This document shows, piece by piece, positions 393-55,996 of a stretch of 64,000 nucleotides of DNA. The DNA comes from Nemertoderma westbladi (Eukaryota > Animalia > Xenacoelomorpha), in NCBI GenBank assembly GCA_032718475.1, contig JAUCBJ010000795.1:1-64000 (forward strand), given 5' to 3'. The translations under genes and the position numbers were made by a program. Numbering within the stretch: position 1 is the stretch's first letter; the number at the start of each line of letters is the position of its first letter. The notes below the pieces were generated by a model. It was given only the letters and a program-made list of their open reading frames with translations. It ran no database searches and was not told the origin of the DNA.

Positions 393-3300
393 AGGGGGTC
401 ATACCGAGTCGGGTGTAGGTGTAGGGGGGTCATACAAAGTCGGGTACGGGGTCATACAAAGTCCGGTACGGGGTCATACAAAGTCGGGTAGGTGGTCAGG
501 TCATACAAAGTTGGGTAGGGGGTCATACAAAGTCGGGTAGGGGTCATACAAAGTCGGGTAGGGGGTCATACAAAGTCGGGTAGGGGGTCATACAAAGTCG
601 GGTAGGGGGTCATACAAAGTCGGGTAGGGGGTCATACAAAGTCGGGTAGGGGGTCATACAAAGTCGGGTAGGGGGTCATACAAAGTCGGGTAGGGGTCAT
701 ACAAAGTCGGGTAGGGGGTCATACAAAGTCGGGTAGGGGGTCATACAAAGTCGGGTAGGGGGTCTTACAAAGTCGGGCGTAGGGGGTCATACAGAGTCGG
801 GTAGGGGGTCATACAAAGTCGGGTAGGGGGTCATACAATGTCGGGTAGGGGGTCATACAAAGTCGGGTAGGGGGTCATACAAAGTCGGGTAGGGGGTCTT
901 ACAAAGTCGGGTAGGGGGTCATACAAAGTCGGGTATATAGGGGGTCATACAAAGTCGGGTAGGGGTCATACAAAGTCGGGTAGGGGGTCATACAATGTCG
1001 GGTATATAGGGGGTCATACAAAGTCGGGTAGGGGGTCATACAAAGTCGGGTATATAGGGGGTCATACAAAGTCGGGTAGGGGTCATACAAAGTCGGGTAG
1101 GGAGGGGGTCATACAAAGTCGGGTAGGCGTCATACAAAGCCGGGTAGGCGTCATACAAAGTCGGGTAGGCGTCATACAAAGTCGGGTAGGGAGGGAGTCA
1201 TACAAAGTCGGGTAGGGGGTCATACAAAGTCGGGTAGGGGGTCATACAAAGTCGGGTAGGGGGTCATACAAAGTCGGGTGTAGGGGGTCATACAAAGTCG
1301 GGTGTAGGGGGTCATACAAAGTCGGGTGTAGGGGGTCATACAAAGTCGGGTACGGGGTCATACAAAGTCGGGTAGGGGGTCTTACAAAGTCGGGTGTAGG
1401 GGGTCATACAGACTCGGGTAGGGGGTCATACAAAGTCGGGTAGGGGTCATACAAAGTCGGGTAGGGGGTCATACAAAGTCGGGTAGGGGGTCATACAAAG
1501 TCGGGTAGGGGGTCATACAAAGTCGGGTAGGGGGTCATACAAAGTCGGGTAGGGGTCATACAAAGTCGGGTAGGGGGGTCATACAAAGTCGGGTAGGGAG
1601 GGGGTCATACAAAGTCGGGTAGGGAGGGGGTCATACAAAGTCGGGTAGGGGTCATACAAAGTCGGGTAGGGGGTCATACAAAGTCGGGTAGGGGGTCATA
1701 CAAAGTCGGGTAGGGGGTCATACAAAGTCGGGTAGGGGGTCATACAAAGTCGGGTAGGGGGTCATACAAAGTCGGGTAGGGGGTCATACAAAGTCGGGTA
1801 GGGGGTCATACAAAGTCGGGTAGGGGGTCATACAAAGTCGGGTAGGGGGTCATACAAAGTCGGGTAGGGGGTCTTACAAAGTCGGGTAGGGGGTCATACA
1901 AAGTCGGGTATATAGGGGGTCATACAAAGTCGGGTAGGGGTCATACAAAGTCGGGTAGGGGGTCATACAATGTCGGGTATATAGGGGGTCATACAAAGTC
2001 GGGTAGGGGGTCATACAAAGTCGGGTATATAGGGGGTCATACAAAGTCGGGTAGGGGTCATACAAAGTCGGGTAGGGAGGGGGTCATACAAAGTCGGGTA
2101 GGCGTCATACAAAGCCGGGTAGGCGTCATACAAAGTCGGGTAGGCGTCATACAAAGTCGGGTAGGGAGGGAGTCATACAAAGTCGGGTAGGGGGTCATAC
2201 AAAGTCGGGTAGGGGGTCATACAAAGTCGGGTAGGGGGTCATACAAAGTCGGGTGTAGGGGGTCATACAAAGTCGGGTGTAGGGGGTCATACAAAGTCGG
2301 GTGTAGGGGGTCATACAAAGTCGGGTACGGGGTCATACAAAGTCGGGTAGGGGGTCTTACAAAGTCGGGTGTAGGGGGTCATACAGACTCGGGTAGGGGG
2401 TCATACAAAGTCGGGTAGGGGTCATACAAAGTCGGGTAGGGGGTCATACAAAGTCGGGTAGGGGGTCATACAAAGTCGGGTAGGGGGTCATACAAAGTCG
2501 GGTAGGGGGTCATACAAAGTCGGGTAGGGGTCATACAAAGTCGGGTAGGGGGGTCATACAAAGTCGGGTAGGGAGGGGGTCATACAAAGTCGGGTAGGGA
2601 GGGGGTCATACAAAGTCGGGTAGGGGTCATACAAAGTCGGGTAGGGGGTCATACAAAGTCGGGTAGGGGGTCATACAAAGTCGGGTAGGGGGTCATACAA
2701 AGTCGGGTAGGGGGTCATACAAAGTCGGGTAGGGGGTCATACAAAGTCGGGTAGGGGGTCATACAAAGTCGGGTAGGGGGTCATACAAAGTCGGGTAGGG
2801 GGTCATACAAAGTCGGGTAGGGGGTCATACAAAGTCGGGTAGGGGTCATACAAAGTCGGGTAGGGGGTCATACAAAGTCGGGTAGGGGGGTCATACAAAG
2901 TCGGGTAGGGGGTCTTACAAAGTCGGGCGTAGGGGGTCATACAGAGTCGGGTAGGGGGTCATACAAAGTCGGGTAGGGGGTCATACAAAGTCGGGTAGGG
3001 GGTCATACAAAGTCGGGTAGGGGGTCATACAAAGTCGGGTAGGGGGTCTTACAAAGTCGGGTAGGGGGTCATACAAAGTCGGGTATATAGGGGGTCATAC
3101 AAAGTCGGGTAGGGGTCATACAAAGTCGGGTAGGGGGTCATACAATGTCGGGTATATAGGGGGTCATACAAAGTCGGGTAGGGGGTCATACAAAGTCGGG
3201 TATATAGGGGGTCATACAAAGTCGGGTAGGGGTCATACAAAGTCGGGTAGGGAGGGGGTCATACAAAGTCGGGTAGGCGTCATACAAAGTCGGGTAGGCG

Positions 3301-6039
3301 TCATACAAAGTCGGGTAGGGAGGGAGTCATACAAAGTCGGGTAGGGGGTCATACAAAGTCGGGTAGGGGGTCATACAAAGTCGGGTAGGGGGTCATACAA
3401 AGTCGGGTGTAGGGGGTCATACAAAGTCGGGTGTAGGGGGTCATACAAAGTCGGGTGTAGGGGGTCATACAAAGTCGGGTACGGGGTCATACAAAGTCGG
3501 GTACGGGATCATACAAAGTCGGGTAGGGGGTCTTACAAAGTCGGGTGTAGGGGGTCATACAGACTCGGGTAGGGGGTCATACAAAGTCGGGTAGGGGTCA
3601 TACAAAGTCGGGTAGGGGGTCATACAAAGTCGGGTAGGGGGTCATACAAAGTCGGGTAGGGGGTCATACAAAGTCGGGTAGGGGGTCATACAAAGTCGGG
3701 TAGGGGTCATACAAAGTCGGGTAGGGGGGTCATACAAAGTCGGGTAGGGAGGGGGTCATACAAAGTCGGGTAGGGAGGGGGTCATACAAAGTAGGGTAGG
3801 GGTCATACAAAGTCGGGTAGGGGGGTCATACAAAGTCGGGTAGGGAGGGGGTCATACAAAGTCGGGTAGGGGGGTCATACAAAGTCGGGTCGGGGTCATA
3901 CAAAGTCGGGTAGGGGTCATACAAAGTCGGGTAGGGGGTCATGCAAAGTCGGGTAGGGGGTCATACAAAGTCGGGTAGGGATCATACAAAGTCGGGTAGG
4001 GGGGTCATACAAAGGCGGGTAGGGAGGGGGTCATACAAAGTCGGGTAGGGGGTCATACAAAGTCGGGTAGGGGGTCATACAAAGTCGGGTAGGGAGGAGG
4101 GGGTCATACAAAGTCGGGTCGGGGTCATACAAAGTCGGGTAGGGGTCATACAAAGTCGGGTAGGGGGTCATGCAAAGTCGGGTAGGGGGTCATACAAAGT
4201 CGGGTAAGGATCATACAAAGTCGGGTAGGGGGGTCATACAAAGTCGGGTAGGGTAGGGGTCATACAAAGTCGGGTAGGGGGGTCATACAAAGTCGGGTAG
4301 GGAGGGGGTCATACAAAGTCGGGTAGGGAGGGGGTCATACAAAGTCGGGTCGGGGTCATACAAAGTCGGGTAGGGGTCATACAAAGTCGGGTAAGGGGTC
4401 ATACAAAGTCGGGTAGGGGTCATACAAAGTCGGGTAGGGGGTCATACAAAGTCGGGTAGGGGGTCATACAAAGTCGGGTAGGGGGTCATACAAAGTCGGG
4501 TAGGGGTCATACAAAGTCGGGTAGGGAGGGGGTCATACAAAGTCGGGTAGGGAGGGGGTCATACAAAGTCGGGTAGGGGTCATACAAAGTCAGGTAGGGG
4601 ATCATACAAAGTCGGGTAGGGAGGGGGTCATACAAAGTCGGGTAGGGGGTCATACAAAGTCGGGTAGGGGGTCATACAAAGTCGGGTAGGGGGTCTTACA
4701 AAGTCGGGTAGGGGGTCATACAAAGTCGGGTATATAGGGGGTCATACAAAGTCGGGTAGGGGTCATACAAAGTCGGGTAGGGGGTCATACAATGTCGGGT
4801 ATATAGGGGGTCATACAAAGTCGGGTAGGGGGTCATACAAAGTCGGGTATATAGGGGGTCATACAAAGTCGGGTAGGGAGGGGGTCATACAAAGTCGGGT
4901 AGGCGTCATACAAAGTCGGGTAGGCGTCATACAAAGTCGGGTAGGGAGGGAGTCATACAAAGTCGGGTAGGGGGTCATACAAAGTCGGGTAGGGGGTCAT
5001 ACAAAGTCGGGTAGGGGGTCATACAAAGTCGGGTGTAGGGGGTCATACAAAGTCGGGTGTAGGGGGTCATACAAAGTCGGGTGTAGGGGGTCATACAAAG
5101 TCGGATGTAGGGGGTCATACAAAGTCGGGTACGGGGTCATACAAAGTCGGGTACGGGGTCATACAAAGTCGGGTAGGGGGTCTTACAAAGTCGGGTGTAG
5201 GGGGTCATACAGAGTCGGGTAGGGGGTCATACAAAGTCGGGTAGGGGTCATACAAAGTCGGGTAGGGGGTCATACAAAGTCGGGTAGGGGGTCATACAAA
5301 GTCGGGTAGGGGGTCATACAAAGTCGGGTAGGGGGTCATACAAAGTCGGGTAGGGGTCATACAAAGTCGGGTAGGGAGGGGGTCATACAAAGTCGGGTAG
5401 GGAGGGGGTCATACAAAGTCGGGTAGGGAGGGGGTCATACAAAGTCGGGTAGGGGGTCATACAAAGTCGGGTAGGGGTCATACAAAGTCGGGTAGGGAGG
5501 GGGTCATACAAAGTCGGGTAGGGGGGTCATACAAAGTCGGGTAGGGGTCATACAAAGTCGGGTAGGGGGTCATACAAAGTCGGGTAGGGGATCATACAAA
5601 GTCGGGTAGGGGTCATACAAAGTAGGGTAGGGGTCATACAAAGTCGGGTAGGGAGGGGGTCATACAAAGTCGGGTAAGGGGTCATACAAAGTCGGGTAGG
5701 GGTCATACAAAGTCGGGTAGGGAAGGGGTCATACAAAGTCGGGTAGGCGTCATACAAAGTCGGGTAGGGAGGGGGTCATACAAAGTCGGGTAGGGGTCAT
5801 ACAAAGTCGGGTAGGGGTCATACAAAGTCGGGTAGGGAAGGGGTCATACAAAGTCGGGTAGGCGTCATACAAAGTCGGGTAGGGAGGGGGTCATACAAAG
5901 TCGGGTAGGGGTCATACAAAGTCGGGTAGGGGTCATACAAAGTCGCGTAAGGGATCATACAAAGTCGGGTAGGGGGTCATACAAAGTCGGGTAGGGGGGT
6001 CATACAAACTCGGGTAGGGGGTCATACAAAGTCGGGTGT
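393..6039. repeat. G-rich 21/22-bp tandem satellite, roughly 250 units, in ARID2 intron 3
   Basis: Continuous GGGG(G)TCATACAAAGTCGGGTA units with 24- and 26-bp variants. Unit count estimated from array length. Confidence 0.99.
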
Positions 6040-21182: not shown

Positions 21183-24100
21183 TTAAGAGATTTTGAGCAA
21201 GTAATTCTTAAGTTTTAATTTAAAGATATTCAGACTGGAGCTGCTACGGATATTTTGTGGCAAGGAGTTCCAGAGTAAAGGGCCTTGAACAGATACAGAC
21301 TGGTGACGGACAATAAGACGGACATGTGGCAGGTGGTACAGACCAGCGGAGGCAGAGCGGGTGTTGTAGGAGTGCACTGAAGAAGCCCTGGTGAACAAGT
21401 GGGAAAGAGGGTGGGAGGGGTTACTATGAATATCGTACATTAGTGAGAGGACCTGGAATTGGAAAAGTTGATCTATAGGTAGTATACGTAGTTGTTGGTA
21501 GATTGGAAAGGCGGAGGACCGGTGGTGGCTAAACGTAATACATCGTAGAATTTTATTTAGTTTTGTTCGCAAAGGTTTGGTGATGGTATTGTAGGTGCCA
21601 CCCCAGACAATGAGACCATAGTAGATGTATGGATATATTAACGAGTAAAAGAGCATCCGTAAAATCTGTGGGCTGAGAATATGACGTAATTTATAGAAAA
21701 GACCTCCGGTTCTAGAGATCTTTTTAAGAATGTAGCTTATGTGATTGCGGAATGTTAAATTATTGTCGATAATTATACCTAGGTACTTAAATGCAGATGT
21801 AAATTTTATTGGTTGACTATTAATGGATAGACCGTGAGATTGAGATTGGAATCTGGAGTTTTTAAATATGGAGTATTCTGTCTTATCAATATTTAACGTT
21901 AGTCGGTTGTCACATAGCCAGTCATAGAGCAGGTTAGCGTCGTAATTCATGGAGTCGATTAGAGGAGTCAGATGGCGGTGTCGTCGCATGAGAGTGGTGT
22001 CATCGGCAAAGAGAGTCGCGAGGGAGGATGTGCAGTTAGGTAAGTCATTTATATAAAGAAGAAAAAGGACTGGCCCGAGAACCGACCCTTGTGGGATACC
22101 ACATGAAATGGACCTGAGAGAGGATATAGTGTTATCTATAGATACGCACTGCCTACGGTTGGTAAGATAATCAGAAAATAGTGAAAAGGGCGTGCCACGG
22201 ATACCGTACATTTGTACTTTGCTAAGTAGGATAGAAAAATTAAGCGTGTCGAACGCCTTTTTCAAATCAATTAGTAGTAAACAAGAAGAATCGTAATTAT
22301 CAAGAGCTTCACGTAATGACTCTACAATGTTTATAACAGCCATGGACGTAGTGTATTTCTTACGAAAGCCGAACTGATTAGGGGAAATAATTTTAAATTT
22401 TTCCAGATAGGATATTAATTGAGAATATATAACAGATTCATAGATTTTATGAAATACTGAAAGTAAAGAGATGGGCCTATAGTTGGTAGTCAGGAAGGGG
22501 TCGCCACCTTTATAAACTGGGATAACTTTGGATACCTTAATAGAATTAGGAAAGTGGCCTTGATTTATGCTTAGATTAATTAGGTAGGCTAAATGAGTTG
22601 CTATAATAGGTGCGGCTAATTTAACAAGGTGTACAGGGAAATCGTCATTGGATGAAGCACTGTCGCGTAAAGTAAGTAAATTGTAGTGTACCTCTACAGC
22701 GGAAGTTTCTGTGAGTACAAGAGAGTTAGATTTAGAATGTTGAATATGTCGAGTCGGGCTGCGTGATGTGGTTGGCAGTTTAGAAGCTAATTTTGGTCCT
22801 ATGGTAGAAAAGAAATCGTTAAAGTGGTTAGCTATATCAGATGAGGAAGTCACACTATAATTAGAACCGTTGTTAGATATATTTAAACGTTTTGGAACAG
22901 AAGATTTACTAGATCGGTTAAGTAGATTATTAATAGTTTTCCAGGTTTTGCGCATATTATTTGAATTATTTGTAAACTCCGAAGTATAATATTGTTTCTC
23001 GGCAGACCTAAGTAGACTAGTTAGCTTGTTACGGTATAATTTAAAGATGTTGTGATTTTCAGAGGTTGGGTGTTTGACGGACTTTGCGTAAAGTAAGTTC
23101 TTTTTGCGGATCGCCAATAGTAAACCATTGGATAACCACGGTTTTTTAGAGACTGACTTTTTATTAAGTGCCTTGCGTGGTAGATTTGTGGTACAAGTAG
23201 CCGTAAATTCTGAGTAGAAGTTATCGAATTTGTCTTTATCAGAAACTGGTACAGTCGAAGTTTTGTAAGTCCACTGCTTATTGTACAGGTCTTTCAGAAA
23301 TTTGGTTTTATCGAATTGGCTATAGTCATACACATATTTGGTCTCCGGAGGTCGGAAAAAAGTAGAATAGTTAGAAAGAACGAGAAAAGTTGCTAGATGA
23401 TCGGATGTGCCAGTTTCAGTTAGGAAGACACCCGGGGAGCAAATAGATGAATGGATATTAGTAATAACGTGGTCAATGAGGGTCTTAGAGTGAGTAGTTA
23501 TACGGGTTGGTTGCTGTATTGTTTGGGTAAAACCGTTAGATGAAATTATATTTAGATAGTCTCGGGCATTGGGTTTGGTTGACTTTATGAGGTCTATATT
23601 TATATCACCGGTAATAATTACATCATGTTTAGTAGCTGCCAGTTTTGTTAAGGAGTCATTTAGTTTAGTAGCAAATGAGTCGTAAGATATTTCGTCGGGA
23701 CGATAGATACAACCTATAATTAGTGGTCTACTCGGATGTGGACGAGAAATTTCTACCCAGGAGTTTTCCGGACCAGGAAAGTGTAGATCAGGACGTTCGA
23801 CCATCTCCAGTTCACTCCGGACATAGATCGCTGTGCCTCCCCTGGTCAGCTTACCATACTCCCGGAAGTCACATACAGGGTTCTTATAACCATCAATGCA
23901 TATGTTGTTAATGGGGTGGTCCTTAGTGAGGAAAGTTTCGGAAACTGACAAAATATCGAATTTGTTATTGAGCGTTGATAAGAAATCTGTAACTGCCGTA
24001 AAATTTGAATTTAGACTCCTGCAATTTAAATGAAAGACAGAGAAAGATGGGTTGGTAGTCTCACTAGTGAAAGTGTTGTTAAATTTTGCTTCATTGTAAT

Positions 24101-24470
24101 AGTTGCCAATAATTAAGTTTGAATTAACATTATCATCGGGATTAATAGAACTAAATATGTTGCCAGTAGCTTTATAATCAGAATCTGAAATGTCCTCGCT
24201 ATTTTCAGAACAGAATATATCAAGGTCATCATTAGATACAGGGTAAAAAGGAAATATACCTGCGTAACAAAAATTACAAAAATGTATTAGATTGTTCCCA
24301 GAGTTATTTGAAAAATCCTGGGCATCTAAGAATGAACCACATTGTCGATGGTAGTGCGTATTGCATAAGTTACAGAGGAATACTAGATCAAAATGATAAA
24401 ATTTAGAAAAACAGAAACCACAATTACAGTCAACACGGTCAGGGGGTGGGTTGTATCGCTGGCCGGACAT
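21183..24470 (-). CDS. LINE ORF2: PHD finger + APE endonuclease + reverse transcriptase
   Basis: 1095-aa open frame with HLNCRS, SET, GDINID, LIDH, SDH (APE) and NYRPIS, DLKKAFD, PQGSVLGP, FADD, YLG (RT). Confidence 0.97.
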   Translation of the reverse strand: MSGQRYNPPPDRVDCNCGFCFSKFYHFDLVFLCNLCNTHYHRQCGSFLDAQDFSNNSGNNLIHFCNFCYAGIFPFYPVSNDDLDIFCSENSEDISDSDYKATGNIFSSINPDDNVNSNLIIGNYYNEAKFNNTFTSETTNPSFSVFHLNCRSLNSNFTAVTDFLSTLNNKFDILSVSETFLTKDHPINNICIDGYKNPVCDFREYGKLTRGGTAIYVRSELEMVERPDLHFPGPENSWVEISRPHPSRPLIIGCIYRPDEISYDSFATKLNDSLTKLAATKHDVIITGDINIDLIKSTKPNARDYLNIISSNGFTQTIQQPTRITTHSKTLIDHVITNIHSSICSPGVFLTETGTSDHLATFLVLSNYSTFFRPPETKYVYDYSQFDKTKFLKDLYNKQWTYKTSTVPVSDKDKFDNFYSEFTATCTTNLPRKALNKKSVSKKPWLSNGLLLAIRKKNLLYAKSVKHPTSENHNIFKLYRNKLTSLLRSAEKQYYTSEFTNNSNNMRKTWKTINNLLNRSSKSSVPKRLNISNNGSNYSVTSSSDIANHFNDFFSTIGPKLASKLPTTSRSPTRHIQHSKSNSLVLTETSAVEVHYNLLTLRDSASSNDDFPVHLVKLAAPIIATHLAYLINLSINQGHFPNSIKVSKVIPVYKGGDPFLTTNYRPISLLSVFHKIYESVIYSQLISYLEKFKIISPNQFGFRKKYTTSMAVINIVESLREALDNYDSSCLLLIDLKKAFDTLNFSILLSKVQMYGIRGTPFSLFSDYLTNRRQCVSIDNTISSLRSISCGIPQGSVLGPVLFLLYINDLPNCTSSLATLFADDTTLMRRHRHLTPLIDSMNYDANLLYDWLCDNRLTLNIDKTEYSIFKNSRFQSQSHGLSINSQPIKFTSAFKYLGIIIDNNLTFRNHISYILKKISRTGGLFYKLRHILSPQILRMLFYSLIYPYIYYGLIVWGGTYNTITKPLRTKLNKILRCITFSHHRSSAFPIYQQLRILPIDQLFQFQVLSLMYDIHSNPSHPLSHLFTRASSVHSYNTRSASAGLYHLPHVRLIVRHQSVSVQGPLLWNSLPQNIRSSSSLNIFKLKLKNYLLKIS

Positions 24471-24899
24471 GCAATTTGTACAGGGACTTACTTGCCTAGA
24501 CTAGGAGGACTTCGGTGTTTAGATTAGGTTCCCCAGCAGATTGGTAGGTAATAAACATTATTACCTTAATAATAGGTAATCTACTTGGTGGATATCATAA
24601 GTTGATAAATGGTTCGGTATTAAAGAAGAAAATGATATGAAAATATGATAGGAAATGTTATAATGAGATGATATAAAGAAATGTATTAATAATTCGATAT
24701 ACCAAATAATATAACCAAGAAATATGATTAGTAAAGTTTATGAATAAGAATAATTTGACCGGGAACTTACATAAAATAAACTGAAATAAATGGTATGGGC
24801 TCCCTACCAGTCACCGAATAATTTGAATTTCTTTCATTCTGAAATGTTTATGAAGCTTTATAGTTTTATCTTTGTTAATGGTACGAGAAAATTAGGAAA

Positions 24900-25814
24900 C
24901 TACTCGGAGGGCTCCTCTTCTTCGACCACAGCTATAGGCGAGTAGTAGGATCCCGGCATCCGACCATTGGAGGTGGGGACAATGGGACGAGCGGGAGTGT
25001 TGGTCGAGGGAACAGTGGGCCCAGTCGGGGAAGTGGAGGGGTTCCCGAGTAGCGAATCTACGGGAGCAGAGCTGGCAGGAGGTGGAAGGAAGAGGCAATT
25101 TACATCTCGATCAGTCCCGATACGCATCGGCTTGTCTCCATTGCAGACGCGGGCAAATACGACGCCGTTGCGGGTATAAAACGAGTGGATTCGTGCCGCG
25201 CGATGTAGAGCGCGCAGCGATTTAACGAGCAGTGCACGACTCGCAATAAGGTGTTCAGTGATCGCGATCGGCTTAGCGAGATTCTTTTTATTCTGGAGAG
25301 CGCAGACGCGCTGACTGTGTCCGTAGCACCGGATGATCATGGTGCGGGCGCGGGGTTTAAGAGGTTTAGATCCATTAACCGAGTTCGGAGGGCGGACCGC
25401 GTTTCCTAATCGGTGGAAGACGTCAACGTCGTTGATCGACAATTTAAGTGGAGTAAGAACATCTGCGATGAGACTGGCCCTCTCGTTGGCGGAGTTGTTC
25501 TCCTCCGGTAGGTTGTGGACCAGGATGTTGTGACGGCGTTGGTAGACCTGCAACTCCTCATTTTCTACTAGGAGCGTGGTATTCTTTCGTTGAAATGACT
25601 CATTGTGCTTAATAAGGATCGCGTTATCAGACTCTAGATTGGAAATACGAGCAGTATTAGTTACGATTGCCTGACGTGCCTCCTTGAGTTCGTATCTAAA
25701 CTCATCCTGTAGCTCACGGAGCTCCCTGATTTCCTTCTGCAGCTCATCTTGGCCTGCGTGTAGGTCGTCCAGGCGGCGGAGGATTGCCTCACCAACATCC
25801 TTCCAGTTGGGCAT
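24900..25814 (-). CDS. LINE ORF1 (coiled coil + RRM + C-terminal domain)
   Basis: 304 aa: heptad-rich N-terminus, NILVHNLPE, HRLG, ITEHL, FYTRNGVVF, and a Pro/Ser/Thr-rich tail. Confidence 0.9.
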   Translation of the reverse strand: MPNWKDVGEAILRRLDDLHAGQDELQKEIRELRELQDEFRYELKEARQAIVTNTARISNLESDNAILIKHNESFQRKNTTLLVENEELQVYQRRHNILVHNLPEENNSANERASLIADVLTPLKLSINDVDVFHRLGNAVRPPNSVNGSKPLKPRARTMIIRCYGHSQRVCALQNKKNLAKPIAITEHLIASRALLVKSLRALHRAARIHSFYTRNGVVFARVCNGDKPMRIGTDRDVNCLFLPPPASSAPVDSLLGNPSTSPTGPTVPSTNTPARPIVPTSNGRMPGSYYSPIAVVEEEEPSE

Positions 25815-26006
25815 TCCGGACGGGGAGATTTGGAATATTAGCGAGTGATTAAAATATCGATAACGCTGTCTACCGGGGTAGTTTCTCGGTCTGAGTAAAA
25901 GTCCACTAGTCAGGCGAGCAGTACTAAGTATGCATTAGGACAGCACAGTACAGTATCAATAACACTTTCACGTTTATTATTAGATTCGATTCGATTATAG
26001 AGTTTG

Positions 26007-26390
26007 TAATAATAATAAATGAATTGTTGTGGGGTGAGTGACGGTTAATTTAAATATATAATGTAATAAATATGACAATATGATAATGCTCTCCATAGCG
26101 AAAAATGTAAACCGTCCCTACTGGGGCTCGAACCCGGTACCTAGGTTTCAAACTTCCGGTTATCATCGGCCGGGTGTGTTTTGCTTTGTTGTACTTTCCT
26201 TTTAGTGATTAGTTGGCCTAAATATGATATTCCACTCCATAGCGAAATCTTCATCCGATCTGGTAGCTCAGTACGCAAACCCGGCTGATGATAACCGGAA
26301 GTTTGAAACCTAGGTACCGGGTTCGAGCCCCAATAGGGTCGGTTGATATTTTTCGCTATGGAGAGCATTATCATATTGTCCTATTTATTA
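26007..26390. mobile_element. Short palindromic retro-insertion with hammerhead and Pol III-like boxes (retrozyme/SINE/Penelope pLTR-like)
   Basis: 14-bp direct repeat GATTATAGAGTTTG at 25993-26006 and 26391-26404. Inverted arms of about 112 bp at 26064-26175 and 26279-26390. (TAA)n at the left edge. Confidence 0.85.
26278..26323 (+). ncRNA. Minimal type I hammerhead ribozyme
   Basis: AACCCGG-CTGATGA-TAACCGGAAGTTT-GAAA-CCTAGG-TA^-CCGGGTT. Perfect 7-bp stem I, both core boxes, palindromic stem III and a GUA cleavage triplet. The stem II closing pair is a non-canonical U.U. Confidence 0.75.
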
Positions 26391-26554
26391 GATTATAGAG
26401 TTTGATCCAGTAGCTCTCAACGCAGTGTAACCACTACACCCCGGTTCAGGAGGTTAAGTAGTCGTCCCGCCGACGTTTAAATACCAAGATAGTGCAATCA
26501 GATAGATCACGAACAGCATGTGGGATCATATTAAACAGTCGTGGTCCTTAAACA

Positions 26555-28690
26555 TAATAATAATAATAATAAATGATATTTGTATTTGGTGTTGCAGGCG
26601 CCCTTAGGGAGTATTTACACTCTTATCAGGGCGCCTGCAGCTGCCGCACTAATCTAATTTACAATTACCGGTAAACAAAAGGGTTTTCAGTTCGCGTCTA
26701 AATGAGTCATAGGTCATCATGGATTCAGTTGATCGGGTCGATGGCGGTAGTTTATTCCACAAACGAGGGGCAAACGAGTAGAAGCTCTTCGATGCTAGGG
26801 TGTTTTTCACAAGTGGGACAGAAAGCTTTGAGAGATTGCTGGATCGCAACGTACGGGTATCCTCAAGGATAGATATTTCATTGCGCAAATAAGTCGGGGC
26901 AGTCCCGGACAGACATTTAAATGTGATACAAGCAAGCTTATAATTAATCCGTGATTCAATGGGCAGCCAGTGAAGGGATTTCAGCATTGCCGTTGCCGAG
27001 GTGTACTTGTATTGTCCATTGATAACACAATATCGCGGAGAATGAGTAACCAATCTTGCAGCGCTGTTTTGTATCATTTGTAGACGTTTAACTACTGATT
27101 TAGCGGATGTTTTAAGGACAGCGTTTGAATAGTCGATTCTGCTGGTTATGAATGCGTGGACTAGGGTTTCTAGAGCTGAAGTTGTAAGGTAAGCCCGAAT
27201 TTTATACAAAGACCGGATATAATATTTCGATTTCGCTGCTGTTGCTACTATCTGATCTTTAAATTTCAATTCACTATCAAACACAACTCCGAGAGATTTA
27301 ACCTTATCAGAGAAATCTATCTTAACGTTTCTGTATACAATTGTTCTGGCATTCAGAGGTATCTTCATTCTTTGTTGTTTCGTGCCATATACAATCAGTT
27401 CAGTTTTATCTGGGTTAATTTGTAGGTGATTAACGTCCATCCAATCAGCAACAATATGTAGCACAGCAGTGATACGAGTCTTCAGGGTCTCTATATCTTC
27501 AGCATATCCAGTCACAAAGAATTGTGTGTCATCAGCATAGTTGCACCTTTCACTCCTAATGCATCCACACGCCAGAACAGGTCAGTCATATACGCATTAT
27601 AAAGTGCTGGCCCAAGGATACTTCCCTGAGGCACGCCGGTTTAAAGCAATGTTTTATCAGATGTACTCTCATCAATTTTCACGCATTGTTGTCTGTCAGA
27701 TAAATAGGACTCAAAGAGATTAAGTGCAGCACCAGTGAACCCAAATTCTTTACTGAGCTTAAATATAAGGTTTTTGTGATGGACAGTGTCGAACGCCGCA
27801 CTCAAATCAATATAGGAGCACAAAGTAACTTGTTGATTTTCTATTCCCTTAAGAAATTTATTTAGAAGAAATAGATTAGCAGTTTCAGTGGAATGGTGCC
27901 GTCTGTAACCAGACTGTGTCTGGTGAAAAGCTAGCTGTGGTGTAGCTCTATAAAGTATCACTTTCTCAACTACCTTAGATAAGAAACTAAGGTTTGACAC
28001 TGGTCGATAATTTTTTAATATCTCAGCATCCAACTCCGGTTTCTTTAAGAGAGGTCTTACGATAGACAGTTTAAGAAAGGCTGGGAATTCCGCATCTGCT
28101 AAAACCATGTTTATATACATCGTTAAGGGCTGAATAACAACGGGAATTACTGATTTAAATAAAGGCGTTGGCATACAGTCCAGTTCGCAAGTTGCATTTG
28201 ACATCTTCCTTATGAGTTGAGCTAAGTCTTCCTCTTGAAAAGGCTGAAATTCACAAAAGTCTGTTTTATACAATTATTACATCGACTGCTCGTATTGAAT
28301 GTCAACATAATAGTGTTAATTTTTTCAGTGAAAAAATGTGAGAACTTTGTTGCTAACTCAGCACTATTGCCATGCTTAGTCGGTAAAACAAGGTTTCCTC
28401 CCTTTCCCAATAACCTTTTAAACTGTTTCCACAGAAGTTTTGAGTTAGTCGAATTGGTATTAATATAATCGCAGTAAAACGCCCTTGTAGAATCGCGAAG
28501 CAATTTCGCTAGGTCCGACTTTGCTATATTTAAATTAACTTTGTTCTGCTCAGTCAGTTCTTTGTGAAACGCAAGTTCACACCGTCTCTTCTTCTTCCGT
28601 TTAGTCTGGATCCCCTCCATATCTTCCTCCCTGATTTTCGAGTGTTTAGTGTTGATCTTTACAATCTTCTCGCAGAAGCTATTATTGTAG
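26555..28690 (-). mobile_element. 5'-truncated, frameshifted L2-clade LINE
   Basis: NYRPVSNL, DLSAAFDTV, PQGSILGP, YADD, NPDKTE, SRIDY, LHWLP across broken frames. 3' stem-loop GCAGGCGCCCT...AGGGCGCCTGC and a (TTA)n tail. Confidence 0.93.
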
Positions 28691-28824
28691 AGAGATATAA
28701 TGCGGCCGATATTTAGGAGACTGGGTATTACACGAAAAGTTAAAAAATAATTCCGAAAATTACACGTTTATTAGATTTAATTATTAGATGTCGATTTTAT
28801 CGTTGATGAGGAATTCGTTAGATT

Positions 28825-37706: not shown

Positions 37707-40700
37707 TGTTGGATATCCCTTTCCGATGTAGCAATGTAAAACTAATCAGTTATGAGTTACTTCCAACACGCTTAGTATTGTATAATAATAAAGTAGTCTG
37801 ACTACAGTATTACTGCATTAGGTCAAGCAACGCACTGACACAACACAACTATTGTATAATGCGGTACCGGTATATAATTACTGTAGTCTGTAGCCATGTG
37901 TTACACGGTAACAGGCCTACATAAACTGGCATGGCCTATATTCTGTGTAGCATGGCTTTACCTGTTAATAGTAGATCCTAACAATACTCCCCCTGGGAAA
38001 TATTCAGTTCAAAAGAACAAATATATGTTTATTATATGGTCTACGTTATATGGTCTTAATCCTCATTTTAGTCCATATTAGTTTTCGAGTCAAAACCATA
38101 GTAATCAGTTTTCTTGCGGATCCGTATTGGGTATCGTGTTCCAGCGTCACTTTGAGTTTGATCCGACCTCGACTCCGAACTAGGTTCGACAGTATGTCTC
38201 ATTTGTCCTCGTTCTTGGGTTTCCACTGTATCGTCTCTTGCGCCCAAGTGGTTTTCCGCCGTAACCTCTCTTGCTCCCATGTTCACATCAGCCGAGGTTT
38301 CAATTGTCTTGGTACCTCCATTTTTGTTATCAACTCGTTTTGGCTGAAAAATGTCTTTGTTACTCTCTCCCCCTTGGCCTACAAAAGGGCTGAATCGTTT
38401 CCTCAGGTGATCAAGATGGCGTCTGAATATGGTTCCACATATTTCCACTGTAGCGACTCTTGAACCAAAAAGTCCTTGATATATCGCGGGTAACCATTTT
38501 TCAGTAGGTTTACGACGAGAAAAGTTTCGTACCCAGATCGCTTCCCCTTTGATATAGTTTCCACTGGTAGTGATTATCTTTGGATCTTCAGGGAATTTCA
38601 GTAGGCGATGTAAACGTGTTTTAATGTTTCGACCTCCAAAAATCATTTCAGCTGGAGTCTGACCGTTTTCTTTAATGGTGCTGTGGTCAGCTAAGAGAAA
38701 TATGGCAATCTTTTCTTTCAGAGGTATCTTTGAATTGGACAGTTTCTTAAAAGTTGTTTTAAAGGATTGCACTAATCGCTCAGCAGCGCCGTTGCTGTTT
38801 GGTTTATATGGAGCAGAGGGCCATAAAGCAACTCCATTTTCCTTGCAGAAACGTGATAGTTCAGCTGCTCGAAACTGTGGTCCATTGTCTGCTGTAACAA
38901 TTTTTGGAACAGAAAAATCAGCAAAAAACTGTCGGCAAGATTGTATAACAGTCTCTGCAGTGGGATTCTTTGTCACCAGTTCAACACGAGACCATTTAGT
39001 TTTCGCACATATTAATCCTAACAATGTTTGTCCCTCGTATTCGCCGAAATCGAGGTGGATTCGCTCGAAAGGCTCGGTTGGTTCGGGCATTGGTTTCAGA
39101 GGAACATGGACTTCCTTAGAATACTGCTGGCATTGTTCACAGGATTTGGTGTATAAGTCGATGTCTTTAGCAATGTTCAACCACCAAACTGTATCTTTTG
39201 CTAAACCAGTCATCCTTTGTTTCCCAATATGCCCTTCATGCAGAATTTCGAGAACATTATTTTGAAGGTGCTCTGGAATCAGTACAGCCATTCCACGGAA
39301 AATTGTCCCATTATGGACAGTTAATTCATTCCGGATGTGTTTATACGGACGTAGTTCAGGTGAGTTAGAGGTATTTCCTGATGCTAGTTCGAGAACTAAC
39401 TTTTGAAGAATAACATCCTTCTCAGTAGCATCTTTGATGCCTATGCGGTTGAACTTAAACAATTCCGCTGTAGCTTGCTCCATATGTATGTCTGTAATCT
39501 TAATATCAACCATACCATCGATCTCTTCTTTTGGCTTAGAAAGCCTTGTGAAACAGTCAACAGGGTTGTCTTCTGATTTAATGAATTTTGGTGTGAAATT
39601 GTAATTTGACATTTCAACAGACCAGTGCTGTAGTCTGGATAGTGCCATTGATGGTAATTTCGCAGAAGGTGCTAGGATATGTTTCAATGGTAAGTTGTCA
39701 GTTATTAAAATAAAATGTCTTCCCAGAATATAAGATCTGAATTTCCGAACAGCAAATATGATTCCAAGGGCTTCCCGGTCGATTTGAGAGTAATTACGCT
39801 GAAATTTATTTAGCGATGCAGATGTGAAAGACACTGGGGTTAAACAGTTGTCATCCTGTTTTTGGAGTAGTACAGCAGACACGGCGGTCGGTGATGCGTC
39901 AGTAATTATCGTGGTTTCCTTTTTTGTATCAAAAAATGTCAGTAGTGTTGACTTTGCTATTTCAGCTTTGATTCTGTTGAATGCTTGGTTTGTTGTATCG
40001 TTCCATATGAATTCTGCATCCTTTGAAAGTAGACTGTACATTGGTTGTGCTATCTCAGCAAATGATGGGACAAATTTATGCAAGTAGTTGAATAATCCAA
40101 GTACTGATTGGAGTTCTTTGACGTTCTCCGGTGGTTGAAGAGCAGCAATTGTATCTATCTTTTTGGGGTCTGGGCGAATACCATCTTTAGAAATTAGATG
40201 TCCGCAGAACTCGACTGTATTTTGAAAAAACTTACATTTCTCCATACGCAATGTCAACCCAAAGTGGCGAAGGGCAGATAAAACAGACTTGAGGTTTTCA
40301 ATATGCTCTGCTTTGTTCTTCTCAGTAATAACACATTCATCCATGTATGTGGCGCTTTTAGTGTTATGCAAGGCTTCGTATATTCCCCTGAGACATTTAG
40401 TTCCTGAACTTTTTACTCCATATGGAACTCTAGTCGGAATTAGTAGTCCTAATGGTGTGTTTAGCGTAGTAATTAGCTCAGCTTCTTTAACTAATGGGAA
40501 CTGGTGGTATGCTTCCTTCAAGTCAAGGATCGTAAATTCCTGTCCTCCAGAAATTTTGTTTGTGATTTCATCTAAGGTTGATAACTGGAAAGTATCTTCA
40601 ATGAGAAATGGATTTATTGTGGATTTGTAATCACCACACACACGAATTTTATTGTTTCGCAATGAAACAACCAATGGGGTTGCCCATTTTATTTCCTCAT

Positions 40701-43065
40701 TGGGTTCAGGTTTGCGTAGAATACCACGTTTCAGGTCGTTTTCCAGAATCTGAATGACTTCGTCTTTGTACCCAAATGCTATTTGACAGCAACTTAGGAA
40801 TCTTGGTTTGGCTTCATCTGACAATGCTAATGTTGCAGGCTGTCCCTTGAATTTCCCAAGACCCGTAAAGACATCCTTGAATTCTAATTTCAAGTTATTC
40901 AAAGTATCACTGAATTGTACATTGTTTCCAATGTGTACCATCGTTTTTTTATCACTTGTACCTGTAAAATTGTCACGAAGGCAATCAACTCCGCAGTTTA
41001 GCCTGTCTATCCAGTATTTTCCGAAAAGTGGAAGGCCTTGTAATGCTTTGTCAATTATGAGCAAAGGCAAACTATGTTCAGTGATGCCTAATTTGGGTAT
41101 ATTAACTGTTACTTTACTAATACCCTTTACATTCTGTATTCCATCACAAAATCCTTTTAATATTGTATCTGTTTCTTCTAAGCTTTCACATGGGAATAGT
41201 TCCTGGAATTGCTTAAAAGATATTACTGAGTGTCTAGCTCCTGAATCTAGTTCGCATTTAACAATCTTACCATTTATTTCTGGTGTGCAAGTCATTGGAG
41301 CAACTTTTTCCAGCAAATTTATTGGGTTTACCGTAATTGTAGTTACCAGATTCATGTAATGTATGAAATCGTCATCATACTCTTCCCCATCAACATCGCT
41401 GTCTTCTGTAACCTGTAATTGTTTCATTTTCTGGCTTGTAGTTCCAGATTTATATGGGTTTGTAGTACCCGATTTATTGAGACGCGAATGTCCTGTGTTA
41501 TTTGGGGTTTTTTTGTTTGCTTTCATGCAAGCGGCTTGTATATGCCCTGAAGCCCCACAGGAATTACATTTTACTGTTTCTGGTAATTTGCATGTGGTAA
41601 TTTTGTGTCCATTCCTATTACAGCGGTAACACACAATATGCGTTGTATTTGTATCTTTAGCTTTTATGCGGTACCTGGACTGTAACTGTAGTTTGTGGGT
41701 CTCTACTGATATACCATCCACCTCACGCTTTGCATTTTCTCGTGCCTCTTCATAGTTTGTTGCTATGTCAACAGCTGCAATAAAAGTGTCTGGTTTCTGT
41801 CTCATTAACTCTGTGGCTATGTATTCATCCTTGACCCCTGCTAAAAATTGCTCTTTTAGTCTACCATCAAGGGTAGCTCCAAATTCACAGTAACGTGAAG
41901 CTGCTTTGATTGATTTAGAAAATTCGGCTATGCTTTCATGTTGTTTCTGCTGCAATCTGATGAATTTACGTATTTCTGCTTCTTTATTTATTTTATGATT
42001 GAAGTATGTATCCACTGCTGTAATAATATCTGTGTAATTTGCTGTAAGTATGTCTGTAGGGTAGATTAGATCCATAGCAATTTCGAGTAGGTCTGTGCCA
42101 CAATTCGCAAGGAATAATTTACGCTTTTCAGCTTCTAAATTTGCGTCATTATTGAAAGTTGTCGAATCAATTATTACCGCTAGCATGGTTTTATAAACTG
42201 GCCATTTGTCTGTAGACATTTTAAAAGGCTTGAATAGTTTGGCATACTTTGTAGAAACTGCCATAGTTTGTAGTGTAAGTTGAATTTTGAAATTGAACAC
42301 GTACCGGTAGTATGTAGAGGCGTATGCAGTTTAGTATTCAGTTAATTCGCAGATTGACTACTGTACTGCAGAATTGTAGATTGTAGATAATTGCCTTATC
42401 CTAGTGTGTAGGCAATCGTTAAAACTCGCGGATTGACTGCTGTAAGTGCTGTAATGCAGTCCTTTCACTCCCGTAGGTAACCGTACCTGCAGTGTAATCT
42501 GCTTACCTGGTAGGTTGGCGTCCGAATTATAGAACAACGGCGTATAACGTGTTCAATTTAAACGTAATTTCTGAAATACCGGTACTGGTATGTTGTAGAC
42601 ATTTGTATGCATTAGTAGTTCGGCGTAGGTGTAGGCATGTAGGCCTAATGCTGAACTTCTGTAATTACTGAATGCTGTAATCTACGTTGTAGGCCTACAT
42701 GAAGCTGTAGGTAAGCATAGGTACTTCAAAACCTGTCTGCTTGTGTAACCGCGTGTATGTGTTCAATATTTTCCATCGCAGCGCCAATTGTTGGATATCC
42801 CTTTCCGATGTAGCAATGTAAAACTAATCAGTTATGAGTTACTTCCAACACGCTTAGTATCGTATAATAAAAAAGTAGTCTGACTACAGTATTACTGCAT
42901 TAGGTCAAGCAACGCGCTGACACAACACAACTATTGTATAATGCGGTACCGGTATATAATTACTGTAGTCTGTAGCAATGTGTTACACGGTAACAGGCCT
43001 ACATAAACTGGCATGGCCTATATTCTGTGTAGCATGGCTTTACCTGTTAATAGTAGATCCTAACA
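37707..43065 (-). mobile_element. Full-length Ty3/Gypsy LTR retrotransposon (Mag-like)
   Basis: 277-bp TG..CA LTRs (37707-37983 and 42789-43065) and 5-bp TSD GAATG. PBS TGGCGCTGCGA next to 42788 and PPT AGGGGGAG next to 37984. Confidence 0.98.
38068..42300 (-). CDS. Single gag-pol polyprotein
   Basis: Two CCHC knuckles, protease LDSGA, RT (CGDY, LDLKEAY, YMDE), RNase H (TDAS, NYSQIDREAL), integrase (HHCC, RIHLD, DNGPQF, NGAAER). The first ATG is at 42264 (the ORF track uses an upstream GTG). Confidence 0.97.
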   Translation of the reverse strand: MFNFKIQLTLQTMAVSTKYAKLFKPFKMSTDKWPVYKTMLAVIIDSTTFNNDANLEAEKRKLFLANCGTDLLEIAMDLIYPTDILTANYTDIITAVDTYFNHKINKEAEIRKFIRLQQKQHESIAEFSKSIKAASRYCEFGATLDGRLKEQFLAGVKDEYIATELMRQKPDTFIAAVDIATNYEEARENAKREVDGISVETHKLQLQSRYRIKAKDTNTTHIVCYRCNRNGHKITTCKLPETVKCNSCGASGHIQAACMKANKKTPNNTGHSRLNKSGTTNPYKSGTTSQKMKQLQVTEDSDVDGEEYDDDFIHYMNLVTTITVNPINLLEKVAPMTCTPEINGKIVKCELDSGARHSVISFKQFQELFPCESLEETDTILKGFCDGIQNVKGISKVTVNIPKLGITEHSLPLLIIDKALQGLPLFGKYWIDRLNCGVDCLRDNFTGTSDKKTMVHIGNNVQFSDTLNNLKLEFKDVFTGLGKFKGQPATLALSDEAKPRFLSCCQIAFGYKDEVIQILENDLKRGILRKPEPNEEIKWATPLVVSLRNNKIRVCGDYKSTINPFLIEDTFQLSTLDEITNKISGGQEFTILDLKEAYHQFPLVKEAELITTLNTPLGLLIPTRVPYGVKSSGTKCLRGIYEALHNTKSATYMDECVITEKNKAEHIENLKSVLSALRHFGLTLRMEKCKFFQNTVEFCGHLISKDGIRPDPKKIDTIAALQPPENVKELQSVLGLFNYLHKFVPSFAEIAQPMYSLLSKDAEFIWNDTTNQAFNRIKAEIAKSTLLTFFDTKKETTIITDASPTAVSAVLLQKQDDNCLTPVSFTSASLNKFQRNYSQIDREALGIIFAVRKFRSYILGRHFILITDNLPLKHILAPSAKLPSMALSRLQHWSVEMSNYNFTPKFIKSEDNPVDCFTRLSKPKEEIDGMVDIKITDIHMEQATAELFKFNRIGIKDATEKDVILQKLVLELASGNTSNSPELRPYKHIRNELTVHNGTIFRGMAVLIPEHLQNNVLEILHEGHIGKQRMTGLAKDTVWWLNIAKDIDLYTKSCEQCQQYSKEVHVPLKPMPEPTEPFERIHLDFGEYEGQTLLGLICAKTKWSRVELVTKNPTAETVIQSCRQFFADFSVPKIVTADNGPQFRAAELSRFCKENGVALWPSAPYKPNSNGAAERLVQSFKTTFKKLSNSKIPLKEKIAIFLLADHSTIKENGQTPAEMIFGGRNIKTRLHRLLKFPEDPKIITTSGNYIKGEAIWVRNFSRRKPTEKWLPAIYQGLFGSRVATVEICGTIFRRHLDHLRKRFSPFVGQGGESNKDIFQPKRVDNKNGGTKTIETSADVNMGAREVTAENHLGARDDTVETQERGQMRHTVEPSSESRSDQTQSDAGTRYPIRIRKKTDYYGFDSKTNMD

Positions 43066-54255: not shown

Positions 54256-54601
54256 TTATATATATATTATTACATATACTAATACAATTAATACTTAATA
54301 TAATTATTTCTAATAAAAATATATATAATTATACAATTAGTTTTTTCTTGTGCAGAAGGCTTTGATTGTTTAGTTGTAGGCCTATATAGCAACTATACGT
54401 AGGCCACTCTGCATACAACCGTTCACCCTGTGTTATAACAATCGAAGTGATAGTATTAGTCGCGGAATTCAAGTATTATTAATCGTAATATTATATTAAA
54501 TAATATTAAATTAATATAAATTATATTCATATTAATATACAATTTTCCGGAGGAAAAATCATTAAAAAATCATACAAAATTATTCACTTCTAATTTATCC
54601 A

Positions 54602-55996
54602 AATAGAATTACAGAGAATGTGAGAAGTTTAATTTAACCAATAGAATTACAGAGAATGTGATAAGTTTAATTTAACCAATAGAATTACAGATAATGTGAG
54701 AAGTTTAATTTAACCAATAGAATTACAGAGAATGTGAGAAGTTTAATTTAAATAATAGAATTACAGAGAACATGAGAAGTTTAATTTAACCAATAGAATT
54801 ACAGAGAATGTAAGAAGTTTAATTTAACAAATAGAATTACAGAGAATGTGAGAAGTTTAATTTAACAAATAGAATTACAGAGAATGTGAGAAGTTTAATT
54901 TAACCAATAGAATTACAGAGAATGTGAGAAGTTTAATTTAACCAATAGAATTACAGAGAATGTGAGAAGTTTAATTAAACCAATAGAATTACAGATAATG
55001 TGAGAAGTTTAATTAAACCAATAGAATTACAGAGAATGTGAGAAGTTTAATTTAACCAATAGAATTACAGATAATGTGGGAAGTTTAATTTAACCAATAG
55101 AATTACAGAGAATGTGAGAAGTTTAATTTAAATAATAGAATTACAGAGAACGTGAGAAGTTTAATTTAACCAATAGAATTACAGAGAATGTAAGAAGTTT
55201 AATTTAACCAATAGAATTACAGAGAATGTGAGAAGTTTAATTTAACCCATAGAATTACAGATAATGTGAGAAGTTTAATTTGACCAATAGAATTACAGAG
55301 AATGTAAGAAGTTTAATTTAACCAATAGAATTACAGAGAATGTAAGAAGTTTAATTTAACCAATAGAATTACAGAGAATGTGAGAAGTTTAATTTAACCA
55401 ATAGAATTACAGAGAATGTAAGAAGTTTAATTTAACCAATAGAATTACAGAGAATGTGAGAAGTTTAATTTAACCAATAGAATTACAGAGAATGTGAGAA
55501 GTTTAATTTAACCAATAGAATTACAGATAATGTGAGAAGTTTAATTTAACCAATAGAATTACAGAGAATGTGAGAAGTTTAATTTAACCAATAGAATTAC
55601 AGAGAATGTGAGAAGTTTAATTTAACCAATAGAATTACAGAGAATGTGAGAAGTTTAATTTAACCAATAGAATTACAGAGAATGTGAGAAGTTTAATTTA
55701 ACCAATAGGATTACAGAGAATGTGAGAAGTTTAATTAAACCAATAGAATTACAGAGAATGTGAGAAGTTTAATTTAACCAATAGAATTACAGAGAATGTG
55801 AGAAGTTTAATTTAACCAATAGAATTACAGAGAATGTGAGAAGTTTAATTTAACCAATAGAATTACAGAGAATGTGAGAAGTTTAATTTAACCAATAGAA
55901 TTACAGAGAATGTGAGAAGTTTAATTTAACCAATAGAATTACAGAGAACGTGAGAAGTTTAATTTAACCAATAGGATTACAGAGAATGTGAGAAGT
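54602..55996. repeat. 38-bp minisatellite, about 36 copies
   Basis: AATAGAATTACAGAGAATGTGAGAAGTTTAATTTAACC head-to-tail with no spacers. Confidence 0.99.

Follow-up and report, generated by a model that had tools for sequence, protein, structure and literature searches.

The window, a stretch of 64,000 nucleotides from Nemertoderma westbladi (contig JAUCBJ010000795.1), consists of repeat-rich, animal-like DNA, mostly 30-42% in GC, and contains long LINE-like and Gypsy-like frames, which we take to belong to these families from a reading of their motifs. A LINE-like element occupies 21183-25934 on the minus strand. Both of its frames are open, ORF1 over 344 aa counted between stops and ORF2 over 1105 aa, the latter showing a Cys-rich start and endonuclease- and RT-like motifs; within a protein atlas, ORF1 resembles eukaryotic clusters with an FP C-terminal domain. 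An L2-like element lies at 26555-28767 (minus strand); its frame is shifted, and it has both a hairpin rich in GC and an ATT-repeat tail. An uninterrupted Gypsy-like gag-pol frame of 1420 aa is found at 38068-42330 (minus strand). Two satellite arrays are present, at 425-6037 (22-base unit, 247 copies, strong G skew) and at 54591-55996 (38-base unit, 37 copies). The region 30962-54153 is built as a mosaic: near-identical segments (93-99%) recur there in shuffled order, together with RTE-like fragments, owing to either recent rearrangement or an assembly artefact.

A two-armed insertion of 384 bases is located at 26007-26390, about 200 bases before the first methionine of the LINE-like ORF1. 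It is bordered on both sides by a 14-base direct repeat (25993..26006 and 26391..26404, plus strand), the longest exact repeat common to the two flanks and likely a target-site duplication. The left arm (26064..26179, minus strand) is an inverted, 5'-truncated copy, which shows 6 differences from the right arm over 112 bases. It contains a hammerhead, a B box, the 3' strand of an acceptor-like stem, a run of five T and the 3' arm of an outer stem, while the A box is absent; its hammerhead carries a U4 to C core change and is likely inactive. The 57-base 3' tail of the element (26007..26063, minus strand) is found in the left arm only, and changes from AT-rich to AC-rich, with ATT repeats at the end. 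The inverted minus-strand copy thus spans from 26179 to 26007, and includes 57 bases beyond the end of the right arm.

The arms are joined head to head by an 8-base filler (26180..26187, no strand assigned), where contig depth is 73, versus 10,818 in the next bin. The right arm begins with the 5' part of the family sequence (26188..26221, plus strand), and contigs align from 26188-26191 and then continue unlike the window. Within this part, 26194-26205 (plus strand) holds a pyrimidine tract with a terminal TAG and resembles a 3' splice site; in the Penelope element of D. virilis the hammerhead is described as the endpoint of an intron, in the part of the source considered here (PMC4209133). 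The outer stem is made by 26222..26247 and 26351..26376 (both plus strand), which form 21 pairs in two blocks, as the initial annotation had anticipated. The end of the right arm (26377..26390, plus strand) stops 57 bases before the tail end; past a single mismatch, 6 bases of the family sequence expected next agree with the target repeat. Contig coverage is absent at 26404-26600 and no empty-site allele was met, an observation which carries no evidential weight. The inverted copy, the 14-base repeat, the tail, the T run and the family sequence reaching upstream to at least 26188 had all been left out of the initial annotation. The sequence motifs, the two-armed layout, its flanking repeat, the family to which it belongs and the variation of that family are direct observations.

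Two other classes of elements were considered and rejected. A MITE or foldback DNA transposon does not account for ends made of a repeat tail and an internal site, with inversion breakpoints varying between loci; an LTR or TRIM element does not account for the absence of an LTR pair and the 14-base duplication. No coding region, LTR, PBS or PPT was found over the 260 bases of the family seen, stop codons being present in all three frames of 26188-26390. No open reading frame with RT and GIY-YIG domains, as in Penelope-like elements (PLEs), was found in the 64-kb window, and no head-to-tail tandem hammerhead units at this locus.

The right arm carries an A box, followed by a type I minimal hammerhead and then by a B box. 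The hammerhead (26279..26322, plus strand) was searched both by a core pattern, with 1 match in the window against a mean of 0.01 in 100 shuffles, and by a full descriptor, requiring, in addition to the core, a stem I of at least 5 pairs, a stem II of at least 3 and a palindromic stem III. The latter also found 1 match in the window and none in 400 dinucleotide shuffles, in agreement with the complete minimal hammerhead initially proposed; the other motifs then listed, namely A box, B box, acceptor-like stem and outer stem, were likewise recovered at their positions. The CUGANGA and GAAA core, the NUH site and the open stem I are all present, with C3 to A9 at 26285 to 26291, G12 to A15.1 at 26305-26308, U16.1 at 26315 and A17 at 26316; cleavage is predicted 3' of A26316. 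Stem I is 6 bp long (26279-84 with 26317-22), extended to 7 bp in this copy, and stem III is an 8-base palindrome (26308-26315), positions 15.2-16.2 and loop 3 being palindromic. Stem II is weak. The G10.1-C11.1 pair, termed highly conserved among PLE hammerheads in the portion of the literature used (PMC4209133), was not found in this copy, which shows a U.U or an A-U with a bulged U; a variant from X5, one of the four public DNA runs described below, has A-U at these positions. The presence of an extra base between 9 and 10.1 varies with which of two stem II registers holds. In Rfam, a check suggested by the initial annotation, no hammerhead or tRNA match was obtained: with E allowed up to 10, the region 25200-27400 gave 4 matches at the level of chance, and the whole window nothing at gathering score.

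The hammerhead is set within a tRNA-like frame, numbered by anchoring on the A box and the T loop. The 5' strand of an acceptor-like stem, tRNA positions 1-7 (26257..26263, plus strand), forms 6 of 7 pairs with 26334-26340 in the canonical register, which upholds the closing stem already suggested. It is followed by the A box, positions 8-16 (26264..26272, plus strand), recognised through an A..B box pattern with 1 match in the window versus a mean of 0.02 in 100 shuffles. A contiguous block in register with natural tRNAs, positions 44-72, is found at 26312..26340 (plus strand) and comprises the variable loop (44-48, 26312-26316), the T arm with the B box at 26320-26330 (49-53 being 26317-26321) and the acceptor 3' strand (66-72, 26334-26340). 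ARAGORN reported 0 tRNA genes in the sequence, and no cloverleaf with an anticodon arm is formed. The family-majority A box lacks the terminal G (26275 G>A), while the commonest B-box variant (26325) and one A-box variant (26265) keep the purine consensus.

Judging from this register, the ribozyme has for its substrate half an unbroken stretch of the tRNA, and its enzyme half fills the place of the anticodon arm. Since positions 44-72 are in exact register, the cleavage triplet corresponds to tRNA positions 46-48, in the variable loop, and the T arm and stem I compete for a common strand. The B box overlaps the 3' strand of stem I, and positions 44-54 are common to ribozyme and tRNA frame. The initial proposal had the ribozyme replace the anticodon arm, but it replaces more than this arm: its own part begins at the D arm, on the 3' side, and ends with position 43, next to the shared 44-54.

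For comparison, 167 distinct A-box/B-box sequences were used, which derive from 136 viral-contig loci in a sample of about 60,000 and are not host tRNAs. GUH is found at positions 46-48 in 135 of them and AGGU at 44-47 in 52; the spacing of the boxes is mostly 35-38, versus 48 in the element. The enzyme half, which consists of the 5' strand of stem I, the core, stem II, GAAA and the palindrome, is not tRNA sequence, and a CUGANGA anticodon loop occurs in 1 of the 167. All of the 46 CUGAAGA-loop loci fetched, a set selected by pattern, are tRNA-Phe; this loop equals the X5 core sequence, but lies out of anticodon register in the element. An origin of the hammerhead on a tRNA and a recombination between a PLE hammerhead and a tRNA gene at these common motifs are indistinguishable here.

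The abundance of the family was evaluated on contigs from four public DNA runs, which represent at most three samples, one of them possibly the source of the window itself. The numbers of contigs aligned to the stretch are 915, 1106, 1658 and 107, piled over 25996-26403. In run X1, summed depth, which is not a copy number, is about 120,000 on the core versus 39-132 on the left flank; as this excess is about thousandfold but does not count copies, the family is called only high-copy. Run X5 contains almost no words of the 5-kb stretch, yet the family is present, with its own variants. Summed depth is also high on the tail (26007-26063), contigs run from tail to core, and the sequence before 26007/26010 differs between contigs, so that the tail abuts unlike flanks. 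Upstream, the family sequence can be followed to 26188 or further, which gives a unit of no fewer than 260 bases (26188-26390 plus the 57-nt tail of the left arm); before 26191, contigs continue for as much as 653 bases that do not resemble the window, and the 5' end of the family is not seen. The contig pile-up and the descriptor match support the initial description of a mobile element uniting Pol III-type boxes with a PLE-type minimal hammerhead, and show it to be high-copy and non-coding over the sequence seen.

Variants present at 2% or more were collected over 26172-26400 from two runs, where the absence of a variant is not proof of identity. Of the 25 variants, 5 fall within the 44 hammerhead positions (26289, 26292, 26297, 26298 and 26300), and all five affect tolerant ones (N7, 10.1 and loop II), with a p-value of 2e-5 if 7 positions are counted as tolerant and of 1e-4 if 9 are. 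None of the 35 constrained hammerhead positions is variable, versus 19 of 113 in the flanks (Fisher p = 0.007); against the 3' flank alone (6 of 55) the difference is not significant (p = 0.08). Loop II variation reaches 62%, and the X5 change at 26292 gives a stem II of 4 bp. The conservation of the core among copies, expected from the initial annotation, is supported by variants which avoid all constrained positions, and the pattern looks like the result of selection on the hammerhead core.

Outside of the hammerhead, the acceptor pair 26258/26339, whose letters were read in phase only in this copy, is A-U here; the majority letters in run X3 are G and C (77% and 58%), while U-A is found in the left arm and in a subfamily seen among loose ends, so that its two letters appear to vary together. 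A second subfamily, recognised from loose ends and joint letters, has a fuller D arm between the A box and stem I. In the outer stem, 26243 C>T and 26355 G>A look compensatory, but may come from the same contigs lying on the opposite arm, and the variant at 26243 is seen in one contig mapping and missing from the other; variants at 26229 and 26240 disrupt pairs. The T run shows no variant at 2% or more.

The ability to fold was analyzed on several segments. The 169-nt stretch 26222-26390 folds at -60.7 kcal/mol (z = -5.75), in a minimum-energy structure which is not the hammerhead. Within 26245-26353 the hammerhead fold lies above the minimum by 7.5 kcal/mol for this copy, 5.1 for the X3 majority and 1.0 with X5 letters, and this copy favours an alternative hairpin (P = 0.84). 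When the motif is isolated (26270-26335, X3 majority letters), stem I forms with P = 0.88, and two such motifs, paired at minimum energy, show a double hammerhead's stems I and III. Once the full tRNA-like context is included, however, no double hammerhead is obtained as the best dimer. This copy probably cuts poorly, since misfolding is predicted for its right arm and the hammerhead of its left arm is mutated in the core.

The run of five T (T5), a likely Pol III terminator, is located at 26349..26353 (plus strand), 9 bases after tRNA position 72, and is present in both arms. Promoters of the tRNA type start transcription 10-20 nt before the A box, and Pol III stops at four or more T. These rules predict that a solo copy gives an RNA of about 100 nt, with neither arm of the outer stem complete and with no tail. 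The Pol III unit of about 170 nt initially proposed is not supported, the family unit being at least 260 nt long and the T5 run being expected to stop a solo transcript at about 100 nt. As the T5 run precedes the tail, the priming region should be out of reach of Pol III alone, and mobilisation would need either read-through of the T5 run or another polymerase.

Joints between arms were inspected in the same contigs. Inverted joints, from antisense tail or arm to sense arm, recur at other breakpoints among the 15 of 62 joints shown, and a second mapping has a strand change in 5 of 10 joints; no tandem junction was found among the joints shown (15 of 62, and 10 in the second mapping). At 26316-26318, three runs show a pair of distinct inversion joints in which the sense arm begins within 1 base of the predicted cut, a coincidence that is not significant. 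Contig depth shows no step at the predicted cut site, and most inserted copies therefore likely derive from uncut or rejoined RNA; for an anole PLE, inserted copies have likewise been reported mostly from uncut RNA in the part of the study relied upon (PMC11167929).

Some of these data could also be read as pointing to a silent hammerhead, left as a relic or arising incidentally from tRNA sequence, in an RNA that never cuts; the motif would be uniform only through the youth of the family. The weak stem II with no G10.1-C11.1 pair, the unfavourable folding in context and the missing depth step would all be expected, GUH at 46-48 is already present in 135 of the 167 tRNA-like sequences, and sense arms start within 1 base of the cut in 2 of 11 joints, not a significant number (p = 0.06), in a count that excludes as ambiguous any joint that changes strand or begins beyond 26340. 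Hammerhead mutants of the PLE known as PAc still insert, according to the sections consulted of the same source (PMC11167929). Such a reading does not explain why variants avoid every constrained position while loop II varies up to 62%, nor an enzyme half that is not tRNA sequence, CUGANGA being found in a single anticodon loop out of 167, and we consider it very unlikely.

We hold instead, with moderate confidence, that the element is a non-autonomous retroelement of the retrozyme or Sm-alpha kind, whose RNA would be copied by a Penelope-type enzyme. Two PLE traits named in PMC8557442, an inverted copy truncated at its 5' side and the restriction of the tail to one end, are both seen in this insertion, although the tail is 57 bases long versus the 30-40 reported. 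Source copies would be transcribed by Pol III from the A and B boxes with read-through of the T5 run, or via host read-through, and the RNA would mainly stay in inactive folds. Two molecules or units could pair via the 8-base palindrome into a double hammerhead, perhaps assisted by protein, which would cut after position 48 of the tRNA frame. Such a cut would separate the A box from the B box, so that the whole promoter would be passed on only by uncut or rejoined RNA; rejoining by a tRNA ligase might give circles and multimers. A PLE reverse transcriptase-endonuclease would then nick both DNA strands, 14 bases apart, and prime a cDNA on each of two templates, at the tail end of the first and 57 bases upstream in the second; the two cDNAs would be joined head to head. 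The PLE protein is described, in those parts of PMC11167929 drawn upon here, as nicking and extending both strands, as initiating internally, at two sites, in an AC-rich region, and as using mainly uncut RNA, while the PLE hammerhead requires the protein. No stem-loop is predicted in the tail of our element, unlike the PAc start site.

The tail also suggests a different enzyme. Its last 16 bases are all identical to the tail of the adjoining L2-like element (26561-26576), and this is the main point in favour of a tRNA-type SINE moved by a LINE of the L2/CR1 clade, able to recognise the common ATT-repeat tail; the inversion would be due to twin priming or to two insertions, and the hammerhead would be a passenger. 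Tails which finish in 3-base steps next to unlike flanks, the 14-base direct repeat, the 6 bases over which target and element agree at the right end and the intact-looking LINE frames in the window are also consistent with it. The common 16-base stretch is, however, short and of low complexity, the stem-loop upstream in the L2 element is not found in the tail of the insertion, and two arms overlapping by 112 bases with 6 differences are impossible from one monomer template. A plain tRNA SINE has its 5' end at the tRNA head and no internal T run. Here, in contrast, tRNA position 1 is preceded by at least 69 bases of family sequence, and the T5 run lies inside the unit. We regard this explanation as rather unlikely.

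The upstream continuation of the contigs bears on a further possibility, that the element is the terminal repeat (pLTR) of a protein-coding PLE, whose frame would be found either before 26188 or beyond the tail; the short copies would then be truncated insertions of this PLE. The 5' end is unseen, as upstream of 26191 contigs depart from the window for as much as 653 bases, the layout is PLE-like, and in the left arm an ATG located in the core is followed by 38 open codons; in the text available for PAc, its frame starts in its hammerhead (PMC11167929). The start codon of PAc is, however, placed there at stem II and not at core positions A6-G8 (PMC11167929), the X5 change at 26289 abolishes the core ATG and all three frames of the right arm are interrupted by stops. 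This possibility seems to us distinctly improbable.

A bolder history of the element can also be drawn, which we rate as unlikely. The hammerhead would have been born on a tRNA gene, with the substrate strand derived from the variable loop and T stem of the tRNA and an enzyme strand installed where the anticodon arm had been, and the element would switch between tRNA-like and catalytic folds; Pol III RNAs of 100 nt, made by its many solo copies, would pair via the palindrome and cleave in trans, and their ends, held by the acceptor stem, would be rejoined by a tRNA-splicing ligase. If this is true, self-cleavage would gate the inheritance of the promoter.

Other instances of this architecture were searched in sequence collections and in the literature. 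A pattern describing it selected 35 loci in metagenome contigs, 0 of which belong to this family; two of them (L012 and L025, about 1495-1550, minus strand) carry a different, genuine-looking minimal type I hammerhead, with a 6-bp stem I, a 4-bp stem II and a palindromic loop, and with no A box and no long frame nearby. Viral contigs gave 1 and 3 pattern matches, read as chance, and prokaryote genomes 0 matches to the exact hammerhead core. No paper on a natural hammerhead between A and B boxes was listed by the literature searches; published hammerhead alignments may nevertheless contain this motif.

Among known systems, the element resembles Sm-alpha and Sj-alpha of Schistosoma, abundant non-coding repeats in which a type I hammerhead accompanies Pol III boxes of tRNA origin, as portrayed in the parts used of PMC6765202, PMC2770079 and PMC8490949; the same union of Pol III boxes and hammerhead in a non-coding repeat is found here. 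A review legend among these sources places the promoter of Sm-alpha before the hammerhead, so that the cut leaves a whole promoter at the 3' end of the monomer (PMC6765202, PMC2770079, PMC8490949). Compared by description, our element differs in that the predicted cut falls between the boxes and the minimal ribozyme has T-arm bases in common. It is also similar to metazoan non-LTR retrozymes, in being a non-coding unit of a few hundred bases with a type I hammerhead, a weak palindromic helix III and a self-paired RNA, with a PLE as likely mobiliser (PMC7229834, PMC7761336 and bioRxiv 10.64898/2026.07.22.740005, each in part). Those retrozymes are defined as tandem repeats and, as far as the portion cited goes, do not seem to harbour promoters (PMC7761336), whereas this locus is inverted, not tandem, and carries A and B boxes and a T5 run.

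With the minimal hammerheads of PLE pLTRs, as documented in portions of PMC4209133, PMC8557442 and PMC11167929, the element shares the palindromic 15-16 region, the inverted truncated 5' copy, a hammerhead 74-131 bases from the 3' ends, the single-end tail and AT-rich junctions; it differs in having no RT/GIY-YIG frame in the sequence seen, a short stem II with no G10.1-C11.1 and a tRNA frame around the ribozyme. A captured tRNA-like promoter in a non-SINE element is also known from Helenus TRIMs, with tRNA-derived LTRs, which, unlike the element described here, have LTRs, PBS, PPT and 4-5-base duplications, according to the part of the paper examined (PMC10886601); a term search of that paper met 'hammerhead' once, in the references only (PMC10886601).

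The element thus appears to behave like Sm-alpha and animal retrozymes, yet to fail one defining feature of each, since the Sm-alpha promoter stands wholly before the ribozyme and retrozyme units, unlike those of this locus, are in tandem. We regard it as a variant within known kinds of elements, all of its activity being predicted. What is new, on the evidence of the letters, is a tRNA block 44-72 kept in exact register and a ribozyme and a putative promoter with bases in common, so that a single sequence of 100 bases would have to work as a promoter in the DNA and, as RNA, both as a tRNA-like molecule and as a catalyst. It may therefore offer a compact test of how retrozymes are transcribed, of the role of minimal PLE-type hammerheads in cells and of the origin of ribozymes from housekeeping RNAs.
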